A stretch of 64,000 nucleotides of DNA from Clostridia bacterium. Its GTDB lineage: Bacteria; Bacillota; Clostridia; RGIG7378. Under the pieces are notes generated by a model. It was not told the origin of the DNA. It was given only the letters and a program-made list of their open reading frames with translations, and ran no database searches. Every line of letters begins with the position of its first letter. The stretch's first letter is position 1. Location of the stretch: NCBI GenBank assembly GCA_017559445.1, contig JAFYSJ010000003.1, positions 1,913 through 65,912 on the forward strand, in the 5' to 3' direction. A program made the position numbers and the translations under genes. Below are positions 4,683-64,000 of the stretch, one piece after another.

Positions 4683-5858
4683 ATGACCAAGTTACTAAAG
4701 GGAGTTTTGACTGTCTTTTTTGTTGCCCTTCTTTTGACAGGATGTGGAGCGGAAGAGGACACAATCAAGATTGGCATAATATCTCCAAATACAGGGGCTC
4801 TAATGGTGTATGGCCAGTCCATGACAGACGCATATAAAATGGCCGTGGATGAGATTAACAAGTCGGGCGGAGTCTGTGGACGACAACTGGAGTTGGTCAT
4901 TAAGGACGACAAAATGGAGGCCACAGAGACGGTTAATTGTATGAACTCTCTTGTGGCAGACCAGGTGGGTCTGGTTATTGGTTCTGTTACATCTGCCTGT
5001 ACTGCTGCTATTACAGATATAGCGAACCAAGAAGAGGTTATTTTGCTTACACCCACAGCTACAGAGGACAGCATTGCAGGAGGAGATGACTTCGTATTTA
5101 GGGTGTGCTTTGCAGATAGTTTCCAAGGAGCAATTGCAGCAAAGTGTGCAAAGGGAATGGGATATTCCGAGGTTGGAGTCCTTTATTGTGCCTCTGACGC
5201 CTATTCCAAGGGTATATATAACGCCTTTGTTAAGGCTTGTGAAATTTTAGACTTACAAATAGTAGATGTGGAAACAGTGGCAGATGTAGCCTTGACCCAG
5301 GACTACTCCAATCAGTGGTCTGCCTTGGCCAGATCTCAAGTAGGATATGTCTTTGCACCCTTTTATTACTACACCGTAGGTCCATATCTGGTGCATCAGG
5401 CAAGGCAAGCTGGGTTCCAAGGGATCATAATGGGAGGAGATGGGTACGATGGCGCCAATGGTCTCCAATACCAGACAGGAGATTTGTCTGACTTTAATAA
5501 TGTGCTTTTTATTAACCACTATTTCCCTGGAGAAGGCAAGGGAGCAGACTTTTCACAGAAATTCATAGAACTTTATGGATATTTCCCAGATGCGTTCACA
5601 GCCCTAGCATACGATTCAGTCTATGTTTTGGCAGATGCCATAGAGAGAGCAGGGTCCTGGGAGCCATCTAAGGTAAGAGAAGCCTTGGGAGATGTGGATT
5701 ACAGATATTCCTGCGTTACAGGTGATTTTGCCTTTGACAGAACAGGTACTCCAATTAAGGGAGCAGTTATTGTGGAGTATATTTTTAACCCATTGAATCT
5801 AGAGGAAAACAAGGTGGAAACTAGACTTCGTGGAAGAATAACCGTAGGGGAGCAGTAA
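4683..5858 (+). CDS. livK: Branched-chain amino acid ABC transporter substrate-binding lipoprotein
   Basis: Lipobox LLTGC, IKIGIISPNTG, PTAT, ALAYDSVY; ATG at 4683 preferred because the signal peptide starts there. Confidence 0.88.
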   Translation: MTKLLKGVLTVFFVALLLTGCGAEEDTIKIGIISPNTGALMVYGQSMTDAYKMAVDEINKSGGVCGRQLELVIKDDKMEATETVNCMNSLVADQVGLVIGSVTSACTAAITDIANQEEVILLTPTATEDSIAGGDDFVFRVCFADSFQGAIAAKCAKGMGYSEVGVLYCASDAYSKGIYNAFVKACEILDLQIVDVETVADVALTQDYSNQWSALARSQVGYVFAPFYYYTVGPYLVHQARQAGFQGIIMGGDGYDGANGLQYQTGDLSDFNNVLFINHYFPGEGKGADFSQKFIELYGYFPDAFTALAYDSVYVLADAIERAGSWEPSKVREALGDVDYRYSCVTGDFAFDRTGTPIKGAVIVEYIFNPLNLEENKVETRLRGRITVGEQ

Positions 5859-6761
5859 ATGGAGAAATTTATTCAAACTCTATTTACGGGACTACAGATG
5901 GGCAGCATATACGCCCTTATTGCCATTGGATATACCATGGTTTACGGCATAGTCAGGCTGATTAACTTTGCCCACGGCGACCTGATCATGGTAGGAGGGT
6001 ACGCTTTGTTGTGGGCAATTCCAGTTTTGAGGGGGATGGGACTGCCCCTTGGAATAGCTGTTTTGCTGGCAGTAATTGTCTGTGCAGTTGTGGGGGTTGG
6101 AATGGAGGTTTTGCTGTATGCTCCTGCCCGCAAAAGAGGTCGAAAAATGTCAGCCCTAATTATGGCCATGGGAGTTAGCCTCATGCTTCAAAATGTTGCT
6201 CAATACTATTTGCGAGCAACAGGAACATTGTACGGGGCTGTGGTGCCATCTTTTCTGCCAGTAGGAAGGTTTCGATGCTTAGGTGTTTCCATGGCATGGA
6301 CAACTCCTATAACTATTACTGTTAGCCTTGCGTCCATGGGATTGTTGCAATGGATGGTTAACAAAACGCACATTGGCAGGGCCATGAGGGCAGTTTCTCA
6401 AGATGCGGAAGCGGTGGCATTGGTGGGAATAAGTAGGGAGAAGGTAATTGCATGGACCTTTGGAATAGGAGCGGGACTTGCAGGAGTGGCTTCAGCTCTA
6501 TGGTATTCTGTATATCCAGGTACATCTCCTGTGGCAGGAACTAGTTTAGGGTTATTTGCCTTTGTAGCAGGTGTCTTAGGTGGGATTGGCTCTCTGCCAG
6601 GTGCCATGGCGGGGGGATTGCTAATCGGGTTAATTTATTCCTTCACAGTAAGCTATATATCTTCCAGCATGTCGGAGACAGTTGTGTTTCTGACATTGGT
6701 TGTTGTGCTTTTGGTAAAGCCTGAAGGAATACTGGGCGAAAATAGGAGAGAAAAGGTATGA
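5859..6761 (+). CDS. livH: Branched-chain amino acid ABC permease
   Basis: GSIYALIAIGYTMVYGIVRLINFAHGD; GRAMRAVSQD. Confidence 0.93.
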   Translation: MEKFIQTLFTGLQMGSIYALIAIGYTMVYGIVRLINFAHGDLIMVGGYALLWAIPVLRGMGLPLGIAVLLAVIVCAVVGVGMEVLLYAPARKRGRKMSALIMAMGVSLMLQNVAQYYLRATGTLYGAVVPSFLPVGRFRCLGVSMAWTTPITITVSLASMGLLQWMVNKTHIGRAMRAVSQDAEAVALVGISREKVIAWTFGIGAGLAGVASALWYSVYPGTSPVAGTSLGLFAFVAGVLGGIGSLPGAMAGGLLIGLIYSFTVSYISSSMSETVVFLTLVVVLLVKPEGILGENRREKV

Positions 6762-38942: not shown

Positions 38943-39077
38943 GTGCCTGCTTGATGGTATCAGTCGGGTCTTGCGCAATGAAATCCTGTGAACCTTGTCA
39001 GGTCCGGAAGGAAGCAGCAATAAGCAGATCCTTTCATGTGCCGTAAGTTAGCCTTGCTGATACCATTAAGCAGGCAT
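38943..39077 (+). ncRNA. ffs: Signal recognition particle RNA (small bacterial type)
   Basis: GTCAGGTCCGGAAGGAAGCAGC domain IV; ends pair (TGCCTGCTTGATGGTATCAG with CTGATACCATTAAGCAGGCA); upstream of dnaX as is usual in Firmicutes. Confidence 0.95.
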
Positions 39078-45711: not shown

Positions 45712-45832
45712 TTTAATCACCTCCGTAACCATATATTTCCCCTAAATTTAATTTCTATTACATGGATTTTGGTGTTGAATGTAACTTTCTGTAAATGCTA
45801 TAATTACGATGAATACATATGAGGAGTTACAC

Positions 45833-47935
45833 ATGACTTATAAATCTATTCTTAAATCTCTTGCATTGCTTGTTGTATGTAGCATGTTGTTCTGCCCTGC
45901 TTTGGGACAGGCTGCAACAGGAACTATTACTGGCACTGATGTTAATATGCGTCAGGGCGCTGGTACTAATACAGCAGTTCTTACTACATTGGGCAAAGGT
46001 GATGTAGTTAATGTTCTTAGCACACAGGGAGATTGGGTAAAGGTTTCCTTTGGTGGATATACAGGCTATGTATATGGAACATATGTTAAGACAACATCCG
46101 TTGGCAATGGCGTTGTTACAGGCGACTACGTTAACATGAGAGACGCAGCAGGTACTAACTCCAATGTTATTACATGCTTGAGAGCAGGTACTCAGGTAGA
46201 GGTAGTTGAGAAGGTCGGTACATGGTACAAGATTAAGTATAATGGCAACACAGGTTATATGTCTGCTAACTATATTAGCACTACATATACTCCTCCAACT
46301 CAGACAACAGCAACACCAGCTCCTACAGCCGCTCCAACAGCAGCTCCAACTGCGGTGCCAACAGCTGTTCCTACAGCTAAGCCTCAGGATGGCGCAGGCA
46401 CAGGTATTTTGACAGGTGACTATGTTAACTTCCGTACACAGGCCACAAGCTCCAGCTCAGTTATTGATTGTTTGAGAGCAGGATCCAAGTTCACAGTATA
46501 TGAGAAGACAGGCACTTGGCTTAAGATTAAGTATAACGGACAGGTTGGTTATATTTACGCTTCCTACGTTAATGTTACATGGTACACAACAGCAACACCA
46601 GCTCCAACTGCCACACCTACTACAGGTACAACAGTTACTTTGAGCACAGGTACAGGTAAGGTTACAGGTGACGTTGTTAACGTTAGATCTGGCGCAGGTA
46701 CAAGCTACTCCGTAGTTACAGCACTTACAGCTGGCACAACAGTTAAGGTAACAGGTAAGGATGGCGTATGGTACAAGATTACTAGCGGTAGCACAACAGG
46801 CTATATGCATAGCAACTATGTTTCTGTAGTTTGGGATACAATTACTGTTACACCTACACCAACAGCAGCACCTACAGCAGCACCAACTGCAACTCCAACT
46901 GCTACACCTACAGAGGTGCCAACAGTAACACCTACACCAACAGCAACTCCAGTTCCAACACCTACACCAGTACCAACACCTACTGTTAAGCCAACAGCAA
47001 CTCCTAATCCGGATGCTGATTTCACAGTAAATGACAGCGGTATTATCGTAGTTGACAAGGCTTTGACTGAGTATGTTTATGCAACTATTAAGGTTACAGG
47101 TGACGTTGTTAATGTAAGAGCAGGCGCAGGTACTAACTACGATGTAATCTATACAGTAAAGAAGGGCAACGAGATTATGCTCTTTGATATTGTAGGAGAC
47201 TGGGCTCTTATTGCATATAACAATCAGTTTGGTTGGATTAGTAAGACTTTGACAACAGCAGCAGATTGTACAAGACTTAAGATTACCGCCTCTGATCTTA
47301 ACGTAAGAGAAGTTGTTCTAAGTGGTAAGGTTATTGGTCAGCTTCAGAAGAATGATATTGTACTCGGTTGTCAGGCTAGCCTCGGTTGGTACAACGTAAT
47401 GAGCTACGATGGTAAGTATAATGGTGGCAAGTGCTGGATTTCTGGCAACTATACAACTAAGGCAGATGACGGCAAGGTTATCAACGAGACAGTTCCTAAG
47501 TACATTAGAGAGAACGGTATCGTAACAGCTGAGGTTATTAAGGAAACAGACAGAGACAAGATTGTAAACAAGGCTAAGGAGTACTTGGGCGTAACATACG
47601 TTTACGGCGGAGAGACACCTAGCGGCTTCGATTGTTCTGGTTTCATCTACTACGTATACGAGCAGGTTCTCGGACTTAAGCTTGAGAGAGTAGCAGCTAA
47701 CCAGGCAACACAGGGTGTACACAAGACTCTCGGTGAATTGCAGCCCGGCGATTTGGTGTTCTTTGATACAAACGGCACAAGCAGCTACATTAACCACGTT
47801 GGTATTTACCTTGGAGATAACATGTTTATCCATGCATCCTCCGGTAGTGGCAAGGTTGTTATTTCACAGTTGTCAGGATTCTATTCCAAGACATACATGA
47901 CTGGTAGAAATGTAATTGATTACATGCCATATTAA
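45833..47935 (+). CDS. Secreted cell-wall endopeptidase: six SH3b domains plus NlpC/P60
   Basis: Signal peptide, repeated TGDxVNxRxxAG SH3b starts, Pro/Thr linkers, GFDCSG and HVGIY..HAS catalytic motifs. Confidence 0.93.
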   Translation: MTYKSILKSLALLVVCSMLFCPALGQAATGTITGTDVNMRQGAGTNTAVLTTLGKGDVVNVLSTQGDWVKVSFGGYTGYVYGTYVKTTSVGNGVVTGDYVNMRDAAGTNSNVITCLRAGTQVEVVEKVGTWYKIKYNGNTGYMSANYISTTYTPPTQTTATPAPTAAPTAAPTAVPTAVPTAKPQDGAGTGILTGDYVNFRTQATSSSSVIDCLRAGSKFTVYEKTGTWLKIKYNGQVGYIYASYVNVTWYTTATPAPTATPTTGTTVTLSTGTGKVTGDVVNVRSGAGTSYSVVTALTAGTTVKVTGKDGVWYKITSGSTTGYMHSNYVSVVWDTITVTPTPTAAPTAAPTATPTATPTEVPTVTPTPTATPVPTPTPVPTPTVKPTATPNPDADFTVNDSGIIVVDKALTEYVYATIKVTGDVVNVRAGAGTNYDVIYTVKKGNEIMLFDIVGDWALIAYNNQFGWISKTLTTAADCTRLKITASDLNVREVVLSGKVIGQLQKNDIVLGCQASLGWYNVMSYDGKYNGGKCWISGNYTTKADDGKVINETVPKYIRENGIVTAEVIKETDRDKIVNKAKEYLGVTYVYGGETPSGFDCSGFIYYVYEQVLGLKLERVAANQATQGVHKTLGELQPGDLVFFDTNGTSSYINHVGIYLGDNMFIHASSGSGKVVISQLSGFYSKTYMTGRNVIDYMPY

Positions 47936-47970: not shown

Positions 47971-48026
47971 ATTGCAAAAATAGGTATATAATTAAATTAG
48001 GGAAGAAGTAATGGAGGGTGAGAGTT

Positions 48027-50135
48027 ATGAGGAAGATGCACGTTTTAATAGTTGTTCTAATTGCAATATTAACTTTAGGAGTACAGACTGCTTTTGCGGA
48101 TGAAAGAGCTACTTCTGGTAAAGCAGGTGACGATGTTACATGGTTCTTTGACGAAACCACTGCCACCTTAACATTTTCCGGAACAGGCAGATTAGAATCT
48201 CGTTATACAACTTCTAGAGAAGAATGGTATTCTTGGTCGGAAGAAATAAAATATGTGGTAGTTGAAGAAGGTATTGAAGATTTGTATGGCAGCGTTTTTT
48301 GTAGGCTAGAAAAGATGGAACAGGTATCATTACCAAGCACGTTAAAGTGTATAGGAGATGGTGCCTTCCTTCATTGCTATGGCATTAAGGAAGTTGTCGT
48401 ACCTGAAGGTGTTACGATTATAGATAATAGTGCTTTTAAGTTTTGCAAATCATTGGAACGCATATCATTGCCAGACAGCTTAGAAACTATTGGTCACAAT
48501 GCATTTACAGGATGTACTTCTTTACGATCCATTAGTATTCCGGATAAAGTTAAGCTTGTAAGAATGTCTTCATTTGCGGATTGTACAGGATTAGTTTGTA
48601 TAACGTTTGGAAAGGGCGTTGAATCTGTGGATTCAATGACACAAACCTCAGAATCTAGAATTAGGACACTTATTTTCACTGGAAGTGCGCCAAAAATTGA
48701 TGATATATTTCTCTACAGGGTCACAGCAACAATTTATTATCCGGAAGGGGATAGTTCCTGGGACAACTGGTTTAATGTTAATGATTTAGGTAATACAGTA
48801 AAATTGGTTCCAGTAAAGGACCCATCTGCCATAGTTCCTAACTTGGATTTAGATGTATATGAAGGATTTTGTGGCCAGGATGCCTATTGGTCTTTAAAGG
48901 ATGGTGAGCTCAGAATTACAGGAAAAGGATCTATAACTTCTGCCCCGTGGCATTTTATAGGAAAAGAAGTCAAAAAAATTGTTATAGAAGATGGAATAAC
49001 AAGCATTGATGGTACATATATTTTCTATACTTGTCGAAATGTTGAGGAAATATATATTTCAAATAGTATGGAAAGTATTGTATCGAGTGCATTTGAAGGA
49101 AGTGGAATAAAGTCAATTGTGATTCCAGGCTCGCTAAAAGTAATTCCCTCTGAAACTTTTAGTAATTGTAGTAAGCTTGAGACAGTTGTGATTTTAGATG
49201 GAGTTGTGTCTATTGGGGAAAGGGCATTCTCTTTTTGTGAAAATCTAGTTTCAATTGAACTGCCAAACTCATTAGAACGAATAGAAGATGCGGCCTTTAT
49301 GGGATGTTCGTCATTAAAGACTCTTATTATTCCTCCTAACATTAAGTTTATGGGTGAGAAGTCATTAGCAGGAACAAGAAGTTTGGAACATATTTATTTC
49401 ACAGGAGAAAAACCTGAAGTTTCACCATATATAACTTATAGTTATTCGGGATTTACAGTACATATACCTAGTTACGTTGAGTCCTGGAAACTTTATAGAG
49501 AAGGTGAATATCATAGCATAGGCGGTATAATCTATGTGGTGAAATATGATTGTCAGCACTCATATGGTGTTTGGACTAAAGCAGACGGGGACAACCATAC
49601 GAGAAAATGTTTAAATTGTGGATACGTAGCATCTGAGGAACACTCTTGGACAGAAAAGAGTATAGATAAAACTCCAACATGTACAGAAGCTGGTTCTAAG
49701 ACTATGAATTGCAAAACCTGTGGTGCCGTAAAGACAGAAACCATTGACCCTCCAGGCCATGCAGTAGATAGATCCTTGAACTATGAGCAAAGTGATACAC
49801 ACCATTGGAAGATTTGTCTAGATTGTGGTGGTAAGGTAGACGAACAAGAGCATCAAGGAGAAGAGGAGTGTGAGGTATGTAGGTATAAGCCGGAGCCAAC
49901 TCCTACACCGGAGCCAACAGCTACTCCAACACCAACAGCAGAACCTACGCAGGAACCAACAGCTACATCAGAACCAGGAGATGAGAATGTAGTTGTCACA
50001 CCAACTGCAGAACCAAATCAAGAGGTGGAAGAACCAAAGCCAAAAGAGAATGGCAAGGTGTGGGTATATGTAGTTGGTGGAGCAATCTTAGCAGGAGCCG
50101 CAATTACAGTGCCTATTGTTTTAAAGAAAAAATAA
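48027..50135 (+). CDS. BspA-type LRR surface protein with Cys/His repeats and C-terminal membrane anchor
   Basis: Signal peptide, LRR_5 repeats (LPxxLxxIGxxAFxxC), CxxC/His repeats, PT/PE linker, TM plus KKK. Confidence 0.88.
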   Translation: MRKMHVLIVVLIAILTLGVQTAFADERATSGKAGDDVTWFFDETTATLTFSGTGRLESRYTTSREEWYSWSEEIKYVVVEEGIEDLYGSVFCRLEKMEQVSLPSTLKCIGDGAFLHCYGIKEVVVPEGVTIIDNSAFKFCKSLERISLPDSLETIGHNAFTGCTSLRSISIPDKVKLVRMSSFADCTGLVCITFGKGVESVDSMTQTSESRIRTLIFTGSAPKIDDIFLYRVTATIYYPEGDSSWDNWFNVNDLGNTVKLVPVKDPSAIVPNLDLDVYEGFCGQDAYWSLKDGELRITGKGSITSAPWHFIGKEVKKIVIEDGITSIDGTYIFYTCRNVEEIYISNSMESIVSSAFEGSGIKSIVIPGSLKVIPSETFSNCSKLETVVILDGVVSIGERAFSFCENLVSIELPNSLERIEDAAFMGCSSLKTLIIPPNIKFMGEKSLAGTRSLEHIYFTGEKPEVSPYITYSYSGFTVHIPSYVESWKLYREGEYHSIGGIIYVVKYDCQHSYGVWTKADGDNHTRKCLNCGYVASEEHSWTEKSIDKTPTCTEAGSKTMNCKTCGAVKTETIDPPGHAVDRSLNYEQSDTHHWKICLDCGGKVDEQEHQGEEECEVCRYKPEPTPTPEPTATPTPTAEPTQEPTATSEPGDENVVVTPTAEPNQEVEEPKPKENGKVWVYVVGGAILAGAAITVPIVLKKK

Positions 50136-56051: not shown

Positions 56052-56930
56052 ATGATTAGGAGCATGACAGGCTTTGGACGTGGAGAAGCCAGCGACAGCA
56101 CATACAAGTTCAGAGTTGAGATTAAGTCCGTAAACAGCAGATACGCAGATATTACAGTTAAGGGGCCCAGAATCTTCGCACCATACGAGGACAAGATTAA
56201 GGCAACTATTACTAAGAAGCTTCGCAGAGGTAAGATGGACGTTTTTGTGTACTACGAGACACTTAGCGTTACAGAGGGCATGGTTGCAATTAACGTACCT
56301 TTGGCCGCAGCATACAAGAGTGCCATCGACAACTTGGCTGTAGAACTTGGCATGGAGAATGACAATCGTCTTTCTAATATTATTCGCATGCCCGACGTTT
56401 TCGGATCCAATAGCATGGACACAAACCTTGACGATAACTGGCCAACACTTGAGGCAGCAGTAAATATGGCAGCAGACCAGCTCCAGAGTATTAGCGCAAG
56501 AGAGGGTATGTTCCTCATTGATACAATCCGTCAGGGTAAGGAAAAGATTATGGAGAAGGTGGCAGAGATTGAGGAGAGATCTCCAATTGCTATTGCCGCT
56601 AACTTCGAAAAGTACAGAGCTCGTATTGAGAAACTCTTGGGCGACACGTCTGTAGATGAGGCAAGACTTTTGCAGGAGGCTGCAATTATGTCTGAGAAGT
56701 ACGATATTAACGAGGAAATTGTTAGACTTCGCAGCCACTTTGTTCGCATGGAGGAGATCATCGCTGAGGACGACATGATCGGCAAGAAGCTTGACTTCCT
56801 TATTCAGGAAATGAACAGAGAGACAAACACAATTGGCTCCAAGGCAAACGATACAGAGATTTCTCGCAGAGTAGTGTTCATGAAGAACGAGATCGAGAAG
56901 ATTCGCGAGCAGGTTCAGAACATCGAGTAA
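56052..56930 (+). CDS. yloC: YicC/YloC family endoribonuclease
   Basis: MIRSMTGFG, KSVNSRY, EEIVRLRSH, GKKLDFLIQEMNRETNTIGSK, REQVQNIE. Confidence 0.96.
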   Translation: MIRSMTGFGRGEASDSTYKFRVEIKSVNSRYADITVKGPRIFAPYEDKIKATITKKLRRGKMDVFVYYETLSVTEGMVAINVPLAAAYKSAIDNLAVELGMENDNRLSNIIRMPDVFGSNSMDTNLDDNWPTLEAAVNMAADQLQSISAREGMFLIDTIRQGKEKIMEKVAEIEERSPIAIAANFEKYRARIEKLLGDTSVDEARLLQEAAIMSEKYDINEEIVRLRSHFVRMEEIIAEDDMIGKKLDFLIQEMNRETNTIGSKANDTEISRRVVFMKNEIEKIREQVQNIE

Positions 56931-56950
56931 GATAGGTAACTGGAGGCACA

Positions 56951-58390
56951 ATGGTACCGTACGAAGGTAGAGAGCCATATATTTTCATTAGCTATGCCCA
57001 CAAGGATAGCGATGTAGTCATGCCTATTATTGAGGCCATGGCTGATTATGGTTTTCGTATTTGGTACGACGAAGGTATTGAAGCTGGTACTGAGTGGCCT
57101 GAGTACATAGCAGAGCATTTGGAGAATGCAGGAGCGGTTATTGCTTTCTTATCTGATGCATCCTTGGGATCTATTAATTGTCGTCAGGAAATAAATGAGG
57201 CAATCAATATGCAAAAGGATCTGTTGGCTATTCATCTTCATGAGGTGAAGTTGACTCCAGGTATGCGCATGAGACTTAGCTTGATTCAGGCTATGTTTAT
57301 GTATCGCCACAAGGATATGGATAGTTTCTATGGTGCCCTCTTTAGAGCACAGATTTTGGCTCCTTGCTTAGGTGAGAAAAAGGTTGTTGAACAGCCAGTG
57401 ACGCCTAAGACAGAGGCGGTCCCGGTGGTAGAGAGCATTGTGGAACAACAGGTTCAAGAACCGGAGAACACATTTGAGGAATATCCAATTTCTGATCCAG
57501 AGGATTTCAAAATTCACGATGGAGTCCTTGATGAATACACTGGAAGCAGTGTAATTGTCCTTGTGCCAGAAGGAGTAAGAGAAATTGGCTATAACGAGCA
57601 GAATTTTTGCTTAGTATTAATGGTGAATTCCAAGGCAAAGAACGCCTTTGGTAGAAATAAGGACATTACAGAAGTTATTGTACCAGAAGGTGTTGAGTAC
57701 ATAGGCCATATGGCGTTTTATGGTTGTGAAAACTTAGTTCGCGTCGTATTGCCAAAGACCTTGAAGAAAATAGATAAAAATGCATTCCAAAACTGCTACG
57801 AATTGAAGCAATTGGAGATTCCAGAGGATAGTAATCTTCAATTCATAGGTGAAAGTGCCTTTGAAAACTGCAGTAGTCTTGATAAACTAAGCTTGCCAAA
57901 GTCTTTAAATTACATAGGAAAGAATGCTTTTAGAGCTTGCAGAAGTCTTCAGTCTGTTAGATTTCCATTGGATGGAGCTTTGGAAAAAGTTGGTGAGGAT
58001 ACATTCTTTAATTGCTCGGCACTTGAAAAGGTGACACTTCCTAAATGTGTGATTGTTGTTGAAAAGAGGGCATTTTATGGTTGCAAAAGCCTATGGGATA
58101 TTAACATGCCACAATCCTTAAGGGAGATAAAGGAAGCGGCTTTTAAGAACTGTGAGAGACTTGAACTAGTAGATTGTGCGTGGTTGGGTGTGCTTAAAGT
58201 TATTGAAAAAGAAGCTTTTAGTGGATGTACAGCCTTGAAAACTTTAAGACTTTCCGATACAGTTGAAATGATAGAGGAAGAAGCATTTGTAGGTTGCATT
58301 TCTTTGGATCGTGTAGATATACCTAGGAAGACAAAGATGCCAATGTTTAAACAGGTGTTTCCAAAGCATACAACAGTAAAACGTGTTTAG
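56951..58390 (+). CDS. TIR domain fused to BspA-type leucine-rich repeats, no export signal
   Basis: IFISYAHKD, IWYDEGIEAGTEW, CRQEI (conserved Glu); acidic linker; about 9-10 LRR_5 repeats. Confidence 0.9.
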   Translation: MVPYEGREPYIFISYAHKDSDVVMPIIEAMADYGFRIWYDEGIEAGTEWPEYIAEHLENAGAVIAFLSDASLGSINCRQEINEAINMQKDLLAIHLHEVKLTPGMRMRLSLIQAMFMYRHKDMDSFYGALFRAQILAPCLGEKKVVEQPVTPKTEAVPVVESIVEQQVQEPENTFEEYPISDPEDFKIHDGVLDEYTGSSVIVLVPEGVREIGYNEQNFCLVLMVNSKAKNAFGRNKDITEVIVPEGVEYIGHMAFYGCENLVRVVLPKTLKKIDKNAFQNCYELKQLEIPEDSNLQFIGESAFENCSSLDKLSLPKSLNYIGKNAFRACRSLQSVRFPLDGALEKVGEDTFFNCSALEKVTLPKCVIVVEKRAFYGCKSLWDINMPQSLREIKEAAFKNCERLELVDCAWLGVLKVIEKEAFSGCTALKTLRLSDTVEMIEEEAFVGCISLDRVDIPRKTKMPMFKQVFPKHTTVKRV

Positions 58391-58411
58391 AAATTAAGGA
58401 GACTTTAGAAT

Positions 58412-58696
58412 ATGAAATTAGTTAGCGTAGGATTTGGAAACATGGTTTCCAGTGATAAGTTAGTTGCAATAGTTGGACATCAGTCAGCACCAGTTAAGCG
58501 TATGATTCAGGAGGCCAGAGATTCAGGCTATCTTATTGACGCCACATACGGCCGTAAGACTAGAGCAGTAATCATTATGGACAGTGGACATATTGTGCTT
58601 TCAGCTATTCAGCCAGAGACAGTAGCTGGTAGATTTGAGAACAACGGCGACATGCCAATTAACGACGAAGAAGTAGAGGAAAACCAGGACAATTGA
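58412..58696 (+). CDS. remA: RemA (DUF370) regulator
   Basis: [32 protein letters not shown]. Confidence 0.96.
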
Positions 58697-58709
58697 GCCT
58701 GGTTTTTTT
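58680..58709 (+). terminator. Intrinsic terminator overlapping the remA 3' end
   Basis: AAAACCAGG-N9-CCTGGTTTT followed by more T. Confidence 0.7.
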
Positions 58710-58799
58710 GTGATTTGCTTGAAATGAAGGCCTTTTTGGTATATTATTAGTTAGTTAAATTAGCATTTATGGGTTCACGCCCAGAATCGGAGGAGAAAA

Positions 58800-59075
58800 A
58801 TGATTTTAAATCCATCCATTACAGGATTGCTTGAGAAGGTAGACAGCAGATATACACTTGTTGTTCTTGCTGCTAAGAGAGCAAGAGAGATCAACAATTC
58901 TAGACTTGGTCAGCCCGAGCCTGATGATGATGTTAAGGCAGTTACAATTGCTGTTAATGAGATCATCGAGGATAAGATCACTTACACAAGAGAGCCTAAG
59001 GCTTGCTGCTGTGAGTGCGTAGAGGAAGCTTCTGAGGAGCAGGTAGTAGAGGAGTCTGCAGTAACAGCAGAGTAA
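58800..59075 (+). CDS. rpoZ: RNA polymerase omega subunit
   Basis: [37 protein letters not shown]. Confidence 0.94.
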
Positions 59076-63174: not shown

Positions 63175-63206
63175 AATCCCCTTAGAGAAATCTAGGGGGA
63201 TTTTTG
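63175..63206 (+). terminator. Intrinsic terminator
   Basis: AATCCCCTTAGA-gaaa-TCTAGGGGGATT followed by TTT. Confidence 0.82.
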
Positions 63207-63256
63207 TATTGGAATCTTTATCTAAATCGATATAATGAAAACAGGAGGGCAGGGAA

Positions 63257-63751
63257 ATGAAAAAATATGTATTTGAATTTAAAGGAACAAAAGAAGAGTT
63301 CATAAAAAAACTTGATACATATCCGAAACATAATTACTATGATGGTAATAAACGCTATATCTTTGACGATTACATTGTAAATATTATTGGTAGCACCATA
63401 CAGTTTGGTATAGAGAGATGTGGTCATTCAGGTGGTAATTGGTTTATCCCATATATTACAGAGTTTGAAGATCGAATTGAGATATGCGGAACAATTGAAT
63501 ATATGCTCCCTGTTGATAATCGTAGCAAATTTAAGAAAACCACAGACAAAATTCAGGAAATATTTCTGTATATTGTTTTGGGACCTCTAGTTTTATTGGT
63601 ATTTGCTCTTGTAAAATTAATTTCATTTATAAAATGGATGATTAGAAAGATTTGTCACAAACCTGATGCACCTAAGCCCAAAACTACTGAAGAAAAATTG
63701 TTCAATCTGATGGAAAATTATTTTGGTTGCGTAAGAATGGAAAGTGACTAA
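63257..63751 (+). CDS. Hypothetical membrane protein
   Basis: 164-aa AT-rich ORF, SD upstream, one TM segment. Confidence 0.7.
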   Translation: MKKYVFEFKGTKEEFIKKLDTYPKHNYYDGNKRYIFDDYIVNIIGSTIQFGIERCGHSGGNWFIPYITEFEDRIEICGTIEYMLPVDNRSKFKKTTDKIQEIFLYIVLGPLVLLVFALVKLISFIKWMIRKICHKPDAPKPKTTEEKLFNLMENYFGCVRMESD

Positions 63752-63795
63752 TAAAATAATGGATTTTAAAGATATGATAAAAAGGAGATATAATT

Positions 63796-64000
63796 ATGGG
63801 ACTGTTTGATATTTTTAAGAAAAGGAAGATTGAATTAACAGAGGAACAGCTGAAGTGGAACAAACTGTGGAGCCTTTGGGAGGAAGATAAAGTGGAATCA
63901 CCGTATGCTGAGCTCATGAGATATCAAAGTGAAATAAATAATGGTGGGCACTCTCAATATTTTTTCAACGTTGAAAACACAGGAGATATTCGAAAAGATA
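63796..64000 (+). CDS. DUF4375/DMP19-like protein, 3'-truncated by the window
   Basis: SD AAGGAG; manual translation MGLFDIFKKRKIELTEEQLKWNKLWSLWEEDKVESPYAELMRYQSEINNGGHSQYFFNVE contains the NGGxxQYFxN motif. Confidence 0.6.
   Translation, partial: MGLFDIFKKRKIELTEEQLKWNKLWSLWEEDKVESPYAELMRYQSEINNGGHSQYFFNVENTGDIRKD

Follow-up and report, generated by a model that had tools for sequence, protein, structure and literature searches.

A TIR–LRR_5 protein encoded between yicC and remA in a clostridial genome: a candidate single-chain sensor–effector and its family

Introduction

In the innate immunity of plants and animals, recognition relies mainly on leucine-rich repeats (LRRs). The gene considered here joins repeats of the BspA type (Pfam LRR_5) to an N-terminal TIR domain in a single bacterial polypeptide. 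It lies in a 64,000-nt stretch of DNA from a Clostridia bacterium (assembly GCA_017559445.1, contig JAFYSJ010000003.1, positions 1,913 to 65,912 of the forward strand), referred to below as the window, where it stands between yicC (also called yloC) and remA. A first-pass annotation, made from the sequence alone, had proposed a receptor-like immune protein in which the LRRs sense a foreign protein and the TIR domain acts as effector. The computational follow-up presented here tentatively retains this explanation and places the protein in a large family of gut and rumen bacteria. In the literature searched, no description of bacterial TIR-LRR_5 proteins was found, and public annotation of such proteins reads only ‘TIR domain-containing protein’ or ‘leucine-rich repeat protein’.

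The locus and its operon setting

The TIR-LRR_5 gene occupies positions 56951..58390 of the forward strand, stop codon included, and encodes 479 residues, as defined by the list of open reading frames (ORFs), the sequence, Pfam and AlphaFold2. A Shine–Dalgarno-like GGAGG (56942..56946, +), read from the sequence and of presumed function, is found 4 nt 5′ of the ATG. The upstream neighbour is the yicC/yloC endoribonuclease gene (56052..56930, +; Pfam YicC-like_N and YicC-like_C; TIGR00255, E = 7e-68), separated by 20 nt, and the downstream neighbour is remA (58412..58696, +; Pfam RemA-like, E = 8e-35), separated by 21 nt, a gap of identical length in four orthologous loci. The gene is the sixth of a tightly packed forward-strand array, comEC-holA-recJ-rsmE-yicC-[TIR-LRR]-remA. 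This array is closed by an intrinsic-terminator-like hairpin and U-run (58677..58712, +; RNA folding energy −14.5 kcal/mol, z-score −4.1, then UUUUUUU) which overlaps the remA stop codon and is followed by a promoter-like site at 58719-58747, ahead of rpoZ. Consensus scans for promoters and terminators inside the operon gave a result no better than chance. Judging from gene spacing, the gene probably shares a transcript with yicC and remA, made at a low constitutive level; no RNA run was found to contain it, and DNA runs showed its presence together with variants.

In contigs of other species from the same gut metagenomes, the RemA start (MKLINIG...) follows the yicC stop by ~10-15 nt, and one contig from these metagenomes skips exactly 56931..58430. 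Since yicC and remA are directly adjacent in other species, the TIR-LRR gene is an addition specific to this lineage. It is flanked by neither direct nor inverted repeats, and the repeats that were found are internal and in step with the LRR period. Its GC content (0.40 versus 0.43-0.46 in the neighbours) is slightly low, chiefly in the LRR half. What the first-pass annotation had read at this locus is thus borne out with respect to the reality of the ORF (ORF list, ATG start, Pfam), the two intergenic distances, the usual adjacency of yloC and remA and the absence of insertion-sequence ends.

Architecture of the protein

Pfam assigns TIR_2 to residues 11-116 (PF13676, E = 5e-19, 69.4 bits against a cut-off of 28) and LRR_5 to two stretches (PF13306, E = 5e-59, 198 bits). 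The full-length AlphaFold2 model, built on 42 relatives and with a mean predicted local distance difference test score (pLDDT) of 88.6, consists of a TIR fold (residues 1-140), a disordered segment (143-177, pLDDT <50) and an LRR solenoid (180-479) of 10-11 repeats. The TIR domain (residues 1-140; 56951..57370, +), supported by Pfam, a TIR-only model and Foldseek, opens at residue 1 with the motif of the family, PYEG.EPYIFISYAH. It is followed by an acidic, Pro/Val-rich disordered linker (residues 141-185; 57371..57505, +), read from the sequence and from the model pLDDT, which is the least conserved part among orthologues (45-55% identity, with changes of length).

The remainder is a BspA-type LRR solenoid (residues 186-479; 57506..58387, +), delimited by Pfam LRR_5, the closest structures and the repeat register. 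One irregular first repeat with a helix insert precedes nine regular ones, each 23-25 residues long, and a C-terminal cap, and the cap/tail sequence KTKMPMFKQVFPKHT.VKR is conserved among orthologues. The N-terminal half of the solenoid is hypervariable (residues ~190-373; 57518..58069, +; approximate limits, mapped to the window by alignment) and constitutes the least conserved folded segment among orthologues, with 47-68% amino-acid identity. The closest structures are those of the gut-bacterial LRR proteins 4fs7 and 4gt6 and of TpLRR (6mlx); for 4fs7, phmmer gives E = 1e-59 and Foldseek E = 8e-13. No 19-residue stretch exceeds a Kyte–Doolittle value of 1.23, hence no transmembrane segment or signal peptide is recognized and the protein is taken to be cytoplasmic, without export signal. 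The succession of an N-terminal TIR, an acidic Pro-rich linker and 9-10 BspA-type repeats, with neither signal peptide nor membrane span, had all been seen at first reading and agrees with Pfam, the model and the count of one irregular plus nine regular repeats.

A second LRR_5 protein of the window (48018-50135, +; 705 aa) is of the classic exported kind. It combines four LRR_5 stretches and Cys-rich CxxC repeats with a signal peptide, a stalk rich in Pro, Thr and Glu, and a C-terminal membrane anchor. Identity between its repeats and those in the TIR-LRR protein reaches 37%.

The TIR head and its putative active site

The TIR-only model reaches a pLDDT of 92.3. In Foldseek it matches the TIRs of SPARTA TIR-APAZ, SARM1, AbTir, RPS4 and SpbK with template modelling (TM) scores of 0.66-0.78, the top match being the NAD+ (nicotinamide adenine dinucleotide)-bound SPARTA TIR-APAZ (TM 0.78). 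The BtpA TIR is also a structural match, and MyD88 and Toll-like receptor (TLR)-type adaptor TIRs score similarly in the fold search. The TIRs of SPARTA TIR-APAZ, SARM1, AbTir, Cat1 and SpbK are known from the literature as active NADases.

The conserved Glu that had been noticed in a CRQEI motif is residue 80 of C77-R78-Q79-E80-I81. Profile alignment equates this putative catalytic residue (codon 57188..57190, +) with the catalytic Glu of AbTir (WTNYEL) and Cat1 (WCWDEL). It is invariant among the 42 TIR-LRR_5 relatives and conserved in at least 90% of 99 proteins of the wider TIR subfamily. The full set of invariant residues in the 42 relatives comprises Y10, F12, S14, Y15, H17, W38, Y39, D40, G46, E48, W49, P50, S74, N76, C77 and E80, and thus includes the putative BB loop G46-x-E48-W49-P50, for which model confidence is low at residues 44-46. 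The same profile alignment places Asn76 (codon 57176-57178, +) where AbTir, Cat1, 7uxr and TLR15 have the Trp of the WxxxE motif, and this Asn is invariant in the family. The WxxxE Trp matters for activity in AbTir and BtpA. NADase activity of the TIR is likely but not safe to assume, because this Trp is replaced by an invariant Asn. The invariant triad N76/C77/E80 could be the sign of an altered substrate or product.

Orthologues, age and selection

Six orthologues were found, all in the same yicC-remA slot with the same neighbours, and 59-96% identical to the protein of the window (P0001 96%, P0002 70%, P0003 62%, P0005 and P0006 61%, P0007 59%). When the window is compared with the loci of P0002, P0003 and P0005, identities are 96.5-98% for GlyRS, 91-98% for RemA and 83-94% for YicC, and they drop to 61-70% for the TIR-LRR protein, a drop matched only by ComEC. 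At these three loci, as in most comparisons between lineages, synonymous sites are saturated, and the ratio of non-synonymous to synonymous divergence (dN/dS) is ~0.06-0.14. In the unsaturated pair, formed by the window and the P0001 contig, dN/dS is 0.15 for the TIR-LRR gene (TIR 0.07, LRR 0.17) and 0.02-0.05 for holA, recJ, rsmE and yicC. Amino-acid change in the TIR-LRR gene is ~5 times faster than in its operon neighbours. These comparisons indicate a functional and long-retained gene that evolves faster at the protein level than its neighbours, under purifying but relaxed selection.

A recent mobile insertion is ruled out by the absent flanking repeats, the near-normal GC content and the same site in all orthologues. 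The description of the gene as ‘inserted’ in the conserved operon is accordingly kept in the sense of a lineage-specific addition; a recent or mobile event is not retained, given six orthologues at the identical site and saturated synonymous sites.

Recombined LRR cassettes

Two alleles of a sister lineage, P0005 (locus L003, 6001-7464) and P0006 (locus L092, 4001-5464), are identical over the 197 residues of TIR and linker (0 changes) and differ at 71 positions, all within residues 198-439. In the DNA, yicC together with the TIR and linker (codons 1-197) shows 98-100% nucleotide identity (dS 0.03, dN 0), gene nucleotides ~600-1100 (codons 219-364) only 62-75% (dS 1.24, dN 0.32) and the downstream part (codons 382-487) again 90-100% (dS 0.21, dN 0.016). 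Such a 40-fold jump of synonymous divergence inside one gene is explained by recombination with a deeply diverged allele and not by local mutation. Neither cassette is close to another sampled orthologue (≤58%). A database search with the P0006 cassette, which missed P0004 and P0006 themselves, returned only proteins of ≤321 aa with ≤46% identity, nearly all LRR_5-only.

A second mosaic patch affects the C-terminal half of the TIR domain, where L002 and L095 are 72-76% identical over gene nucleotides 200-400 in a background of 93-96%. The P0002 lineage was considered as the source of the divergent TIR segment of P0007 and rejected, the two being 77% identical in amino acids but 72% in nucleotides, versus 74% in nucleotides to P0003. 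No mosaic patch separates the window from the P0001 contig. Taken as a sequence pattern, the mosaics point to old, divergent recognition alleles exchanged by recombination, and the maintenance of divergent binding-domain alleles in a cytoplasmic protein would fit an intracellular arms race better than housekeeping regulation.

A TIR family with exchangeable heads and tails

A profile search with the TIR head yielded 3,222 clusters (50% identity; E ≤ 1e-30) among 1.84 billion representatives. Scanning one genome per species gave 78 distinct loci, all in metagenome-assembled genomes (MAGs) from gut or rumen and nearly all in Clostridia; the host groups include Oscillospiraceae, Lachnospiraceae, Acutalibacteraceae and Faecousia. 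Several loci occur within single MAGs, and tandem arrays are common. Every one of the 99 head-containing proteins matches TIR_2, and in all family members the TIR domain starts at residue 1.

The domains that follow the head are diverse. LRR_5 is present in 24 of the 99 proteins and Sel1 in 21, and other members carry LRR_4/8, TPR, WD40, DUF6273 or FtsK/SpoIIIE. Conversely, related LRR_5 arrays carry other heads, namely a DarT single-stranded DNA ADP-ribosyltransferase (P0018) and a protein kinase (P0106). Swapping of effectors and sensors is a modular pattern typical of conflict systems, and the association of one effector with many sensors, and of one sensor type with several effectors, is by its domain content conflict-system modularity.

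Some members have unusual forms. The TIR-TM-LRR_5 relatives P0118 and L030:5995-7113, in which a transmembrane (TM) segment separates the two domains, show a TLR-like topology. Four to seven tandem TIR domains (4-7) are predicted in P0121, P0130, P0142 and P0126, some of which end with WD40 or Ig-like domains; fusion artefacts of gene calling are possible in these cases. FtsK/SpoIIIE DNA translocases are fused to the TIR head, N- or C-terminally, in L038:5964-9083, L042, P0145 and P0206, and the loci L038, L039 and L042 share a conserved neighbourhood.

TIR-LRR_5 genes are found co-directional with, and just 3′ of, genes for PNPase, RsmE, an RluD-like pseudouridine synthase, ArgRS, glutamate dehydrogenase and GNAT, intergenic distances at family loci being approximate as they derive from a home-made gene caller in which family ORFs were forced first. 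At L006 (8001-12589) three tandem TIR-LRR_5 paralogues directly follow pnp (PNPase) and precede a TetR regulator; the pnp-linked arrangement is similar in L017, and a TetR gene after the TIR array is also present in L019. The commonest Pfam families among 138 immediate neighbours are Metallophos/YmdB, ABC transporters, HTH_3, nitroreductase, DJ-1 and TetR. Groups of related MAGs share flanks at family loci, which implies vertical inheritance. Phage or plasmid carriage was rejected, since IMG/VR, the GenBank phages and the PLSDB plasmids gave only LRR-only matches. LRR_5 proteins that share 27-35% identity with the LRR part and have no TIR occur in gut phage genomes (records H1-H15, from human faecal, Lachnospiraceae and Ruminococcus phages).

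Viewed as a whole, the family might form, in gut Clostridia, a repertoire of TIR receptors that is fixed in the chromosome, inherited vertically and made of cytosolic paralogues and of paralogues with the TIR inside, a membrane span and an ectodomain outside, with recombining cassettes, as a bacterial counterpart of germline innate receptors; this broad proposal is speculative and rather unlikely to hold in full. Such a repertoire may be characterized by an NCxxE-type head and cytosolic LRR_5, Sel1, TPR or WD40 tails, without a STAND ATPase and outside defence islands. Because of this last feature, discovery based on islands would not find it.

Comparison with known systems

Single-protein TIR and TIR-TPR systems of Escherichia coli protect against phage and need the TIR active site, and the portal protein is sensed by TIR-V and TIR-IX (PMC11350192). 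Like the protein described here, TIR-II (TIR+TPR), TIR-V and TIR-VI, as well as TIR-IX, are one-polypeptide systems with a catalytic-type Glu and no separate effector gene (PMC11350192). TIR-II also has a repeat-type sensor domain in the same chain, but of the TPR kind, whereas here it is a BspA-type LRR_5 array. Further differences from the E. coli systems are the uncultured gut clostridial host, the location in a housekeeping operon instead of a defence island and the Asn in place of the WxxxE Trp.

Resemblance to ThsB of Thoeris is limited to a weak match to ThsB_TIR (PF08937, E = 8.5e-5) and to a possible NAD-derived product. No ThsA, SLOG, Macro or other effector is adjacent, either here or at ~70 related loci; the neighbours in the window are yicC, remA, rsmE and rpoZ, as expected from the earlier statement that a ThsA/ThsB-type partner is missing. 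LRR fusion is not a Thoeris feature, and for want of an effector partner the system is not Thoeris.

Plant TIR-NB-LRR proteins (TNLs) and animal TLRs also combine TIR and LRRs, with recognition by variable LRRs and TIR association as the output. However, plant TNLs possess an NB-ARC/STAND ATPase and TLRs a membrane span, both absent here, so that the protein is neither a TNL nor a TLR. The LRRs of TLRs and plant receptors are not homologous, at the level of repeat class, to the BspA/LRR_5 repeats present here, and the combination of TIR and LRR is probably the result of convergent domain shuffling and not of ancestry shared with TLRs or plant receptors. Repeat type and fold are those of the BspA-family surface proteins (4fs7, 4gt6, TpLRR, PcpA). 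These are typically exported and surface-anchored, whereas here an export signal is lacking and a TIR stands at the N-terminus; not being exported, the protein is an atypical member of the BspA family.

With the NADase TIRs (SPARTA TIR-APAZ, SARM1, AbTir, Cat1, SpbK) the TIR has in common the fold and the aligned Glu. These enzymes are activated by oligomerization, and the same logic would be expected here by analogy. Their activating partners differ (Argonaute, ARM/SAM, CARF), and at position −4 from the Glu they have Trp where Asn is found here. STAND receptors (Avs, bNACHT) follow the logic proposed for this protein, i.e. a repeat sensor for phage proteins and a variable N-terminal effector, but their NTPase oligomerization module is absent here, and any clustering must consequently be brought about by the ligand or by the TIR and LRR on their own. 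In functional logic, and by analogy, the protein would be closest to one-protein TIR-repeat defence proteins and to STAND receptors devoid of an ATPase.

Immune sensor–effector or other functions

The explanation favoured here, with a probability of roughly 0.45, is a cytoplasmic single-chain sensor–effector, most likely immune and directed against phages or mobile elements, as judged largely by analogy. At rest, the TIRs would be monomeric or kept apart on the flexible linker of ~40 residues. The LRR solenoid, chiefly through its variable N-terminal half, would bind a foreign and probably oligomeric protein, a ligand that would gather several molecules. The TIRs could then assemble via their BB loops into a composite active site using Glu80 and, as in TIR NADases, cleave NAD+ or a related nucleotide, whose depletion, or the signal produced from it, would arrest growth of the infected cell. 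The one-component scheme of the first-pass annotation is supported in this form by the invariant Glu, the swapping of heads and tails, the expansion of the family, the fast evolution and the exchange of LRR cassettes, and it is weakened by vertical inheritance, by the lack of defence islands and by the Asn that replaces the WxxxE Trp.

Beyond this replacement, several observations weigh against an immune function. No conserved partner gene exists among the 138 immediate neighbours of ~70 family loci, which are ordinary genes of metabolism and housekeeping, and PADLOC and Pfam detected no defence islands at these ~70 loci, the strays being one DpdF, two PemK and generic ABC/ATPase/HTH genes. 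Vertical conservation without defence-island association, which is what the neighbourhood survey revealed, is one of three outcomes that the first-pass annotation had itself named as counting against its proposal. PADLOC, likewise proposed there as a check, produced no system-defining match in the expected context: in PADLOC-DB v2 no system model was matched beyond weak partial TIR-domain similarity, the best being SAVED_TIR (7e-7), PDC-S66 (1e-6) and ThsB (2e-3). Full-length relatives are absent from the IMG/VR, GenBank phage and PLSDB plasmid collections. Defence genes usually turn over rapidly, and here one housekeeping site has been kept in six orthologues while synonymous sites became saturated. 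Gene-wide positive selection is ruled out by dN/dS values of 0.06-0.29 everywhere. Variability among repeat positions does not single out the concave face, the variable positions being x positions in general (12-13 and 6) in a comparison of low power, with nine repeats and five orthologues. Finally, LRR_5 arrays are otherwise surface adhesin modules, and the membrane span after the TIR, with a domain outside, that occurs in 25 of the 99 subfamily proteins suits environmental sensing equally well.

Several of these points would be explained by a physiological signalling module, a gut-clostridial family of receptors with a common type of output in which cytosolic or extracytoplasmic repeat domains respond to cues from the cell, the envelope or the host/environment and the TIR alters NAD+ levels or makes an NAD-derived messenger, with an output tied, in this lineage, to yicC-remA (RNA turnover, matrix/biofilm regulation). 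This function is somewhat unlikely and remains a serious rival on account of the vertical housekeeping inheritance, the lack of islands and mobile elements, the missing Trp and the membrane-receptor relatives. It would accommodate a fixed housekeeping locus under purifying selection, a gene packed closely between yicC and remA, whose only terminator comes after remA, the receptor-like TIR-TM-ectodomain members (25 of 99) and the origin of all 78 loci from gut or rumen MAGs. It accounts poorly for an LRR cassette of 62-75% identity inside a gene otherwise 98-100% identical within one species, which is unexpected of a housekeeping regulator, and for evolution ~5 times faster than that of the operon neighbours; moreover, the sensor type is common with DarT toxin heads, no conserved downstream signal reader adjoins any member, and other species do without a gene between yicC and remA.

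The replacement of the WxxxE Trp by Asn and the similar fold-search scores of adaptor TIRs (MyD88, TLR-type) could also suggest a non-enzymatic scaffold or adaptor, where TIR and LRR serve as interaction modules without nucleotide chemistry. Such a role is improbable in view of the invariance of E80, N76, C77, S74 and G46-x-E48-W49-P50 in the 42 TIR-LRR_5 relatives; even among the 99 diverse proteins S74 is still invariant and the other pocket-like residues are conserved in at least 90%, suggesting a pocket rather than a surface, and NAD+-bound SPARTA TIRs are among the best structural matches. A host- or competitor-directed effector comparable to the Tcp/Btp TIR proteins, released or delivered so that the LRR binds a target and the TIR disturbs TLR signalling or NAD+ metabolism, appears very improbable. 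The animal-gut habitat, the structural match to the BtpA TIR and the proximity of the LRR to LRR proteins of gut and oral bacteria (4fs7, 4gt6, TpLRR, PcpA), of which some were deposited as cell-surface proteins, would be in keeping with it. However, a signal peptide, a TM segment and secretion-system neighbours are all lacking, the TIR starts at residue 1 family-wide, and the true surface LRR_5 protein of the window (48018-50135) has the signal peptide and anchor that the TIR-LRR protein lacks; several cytosolic paralogues per genome are also hard to reconcile with delivery.

Implications

Should the protein be an immune sensor–effector, LRRs would work with TIRs in bacteria too, in the simplest form, without NTPase and without partner gene. 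Searches based on guilt by association would then overlook a sizeable family (3,222 clusters at 50% identity), since its members adjoin housekeeping genes and are inherited vertically, and the naturally swapped LRR cassettes would offer matched allele pairs for mapping recognition. Should it instead take part in physiological NAD-linked signalling, a new regulatory layer would be added in abundant, poorly studied gut anaerobes. The replacement of the WxxxE Trp by an invariant Asn may also characterize a TIR clade whose substrate or product is different. The single gene is a plausible member, and the family picture is of greater interest through its size, vertical inheritance outside islands, TLR-like forms and swapped cassettes.

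Additional features of the window and of related loci

Downstream of remA, the terminator and promoter-like site (58697-58799) lead directly to rpoZ (58800-59075). The gene gmk, which in Bacillus subtilis is located between remA and rpoZ, is missing from this interval in the window and in the orthologous loci. At 63200-64000, GC content falls sharply to ~29% immediately 3′ of ppdK, and the ORF found there (63257-63751, 164 aa) has no Pfam match; the corresponding spot holds HTH_3 in L002 and isochorismatase in L003, and with different genes in orthologous loci it is a variable spot. The window also encodes a cell-wall hydrolase (45809-47935, +) in which an NlpC/P60 domain accompanies five SH3_3 repeats, and the sole Rfam match in the window is a small signal recognition particle RNA (38962-39061, +). 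Among related loci, yicC appears as two ORFs in L013 (~5080-5960), where a frameshift, a pseudogene or an error of MAG assembly is possible, and the TIR-LRR genes of L022 (5980-7600) and L019 (3401-5000) appear split, possibly by frameshift, pseudogenization or assembly error.

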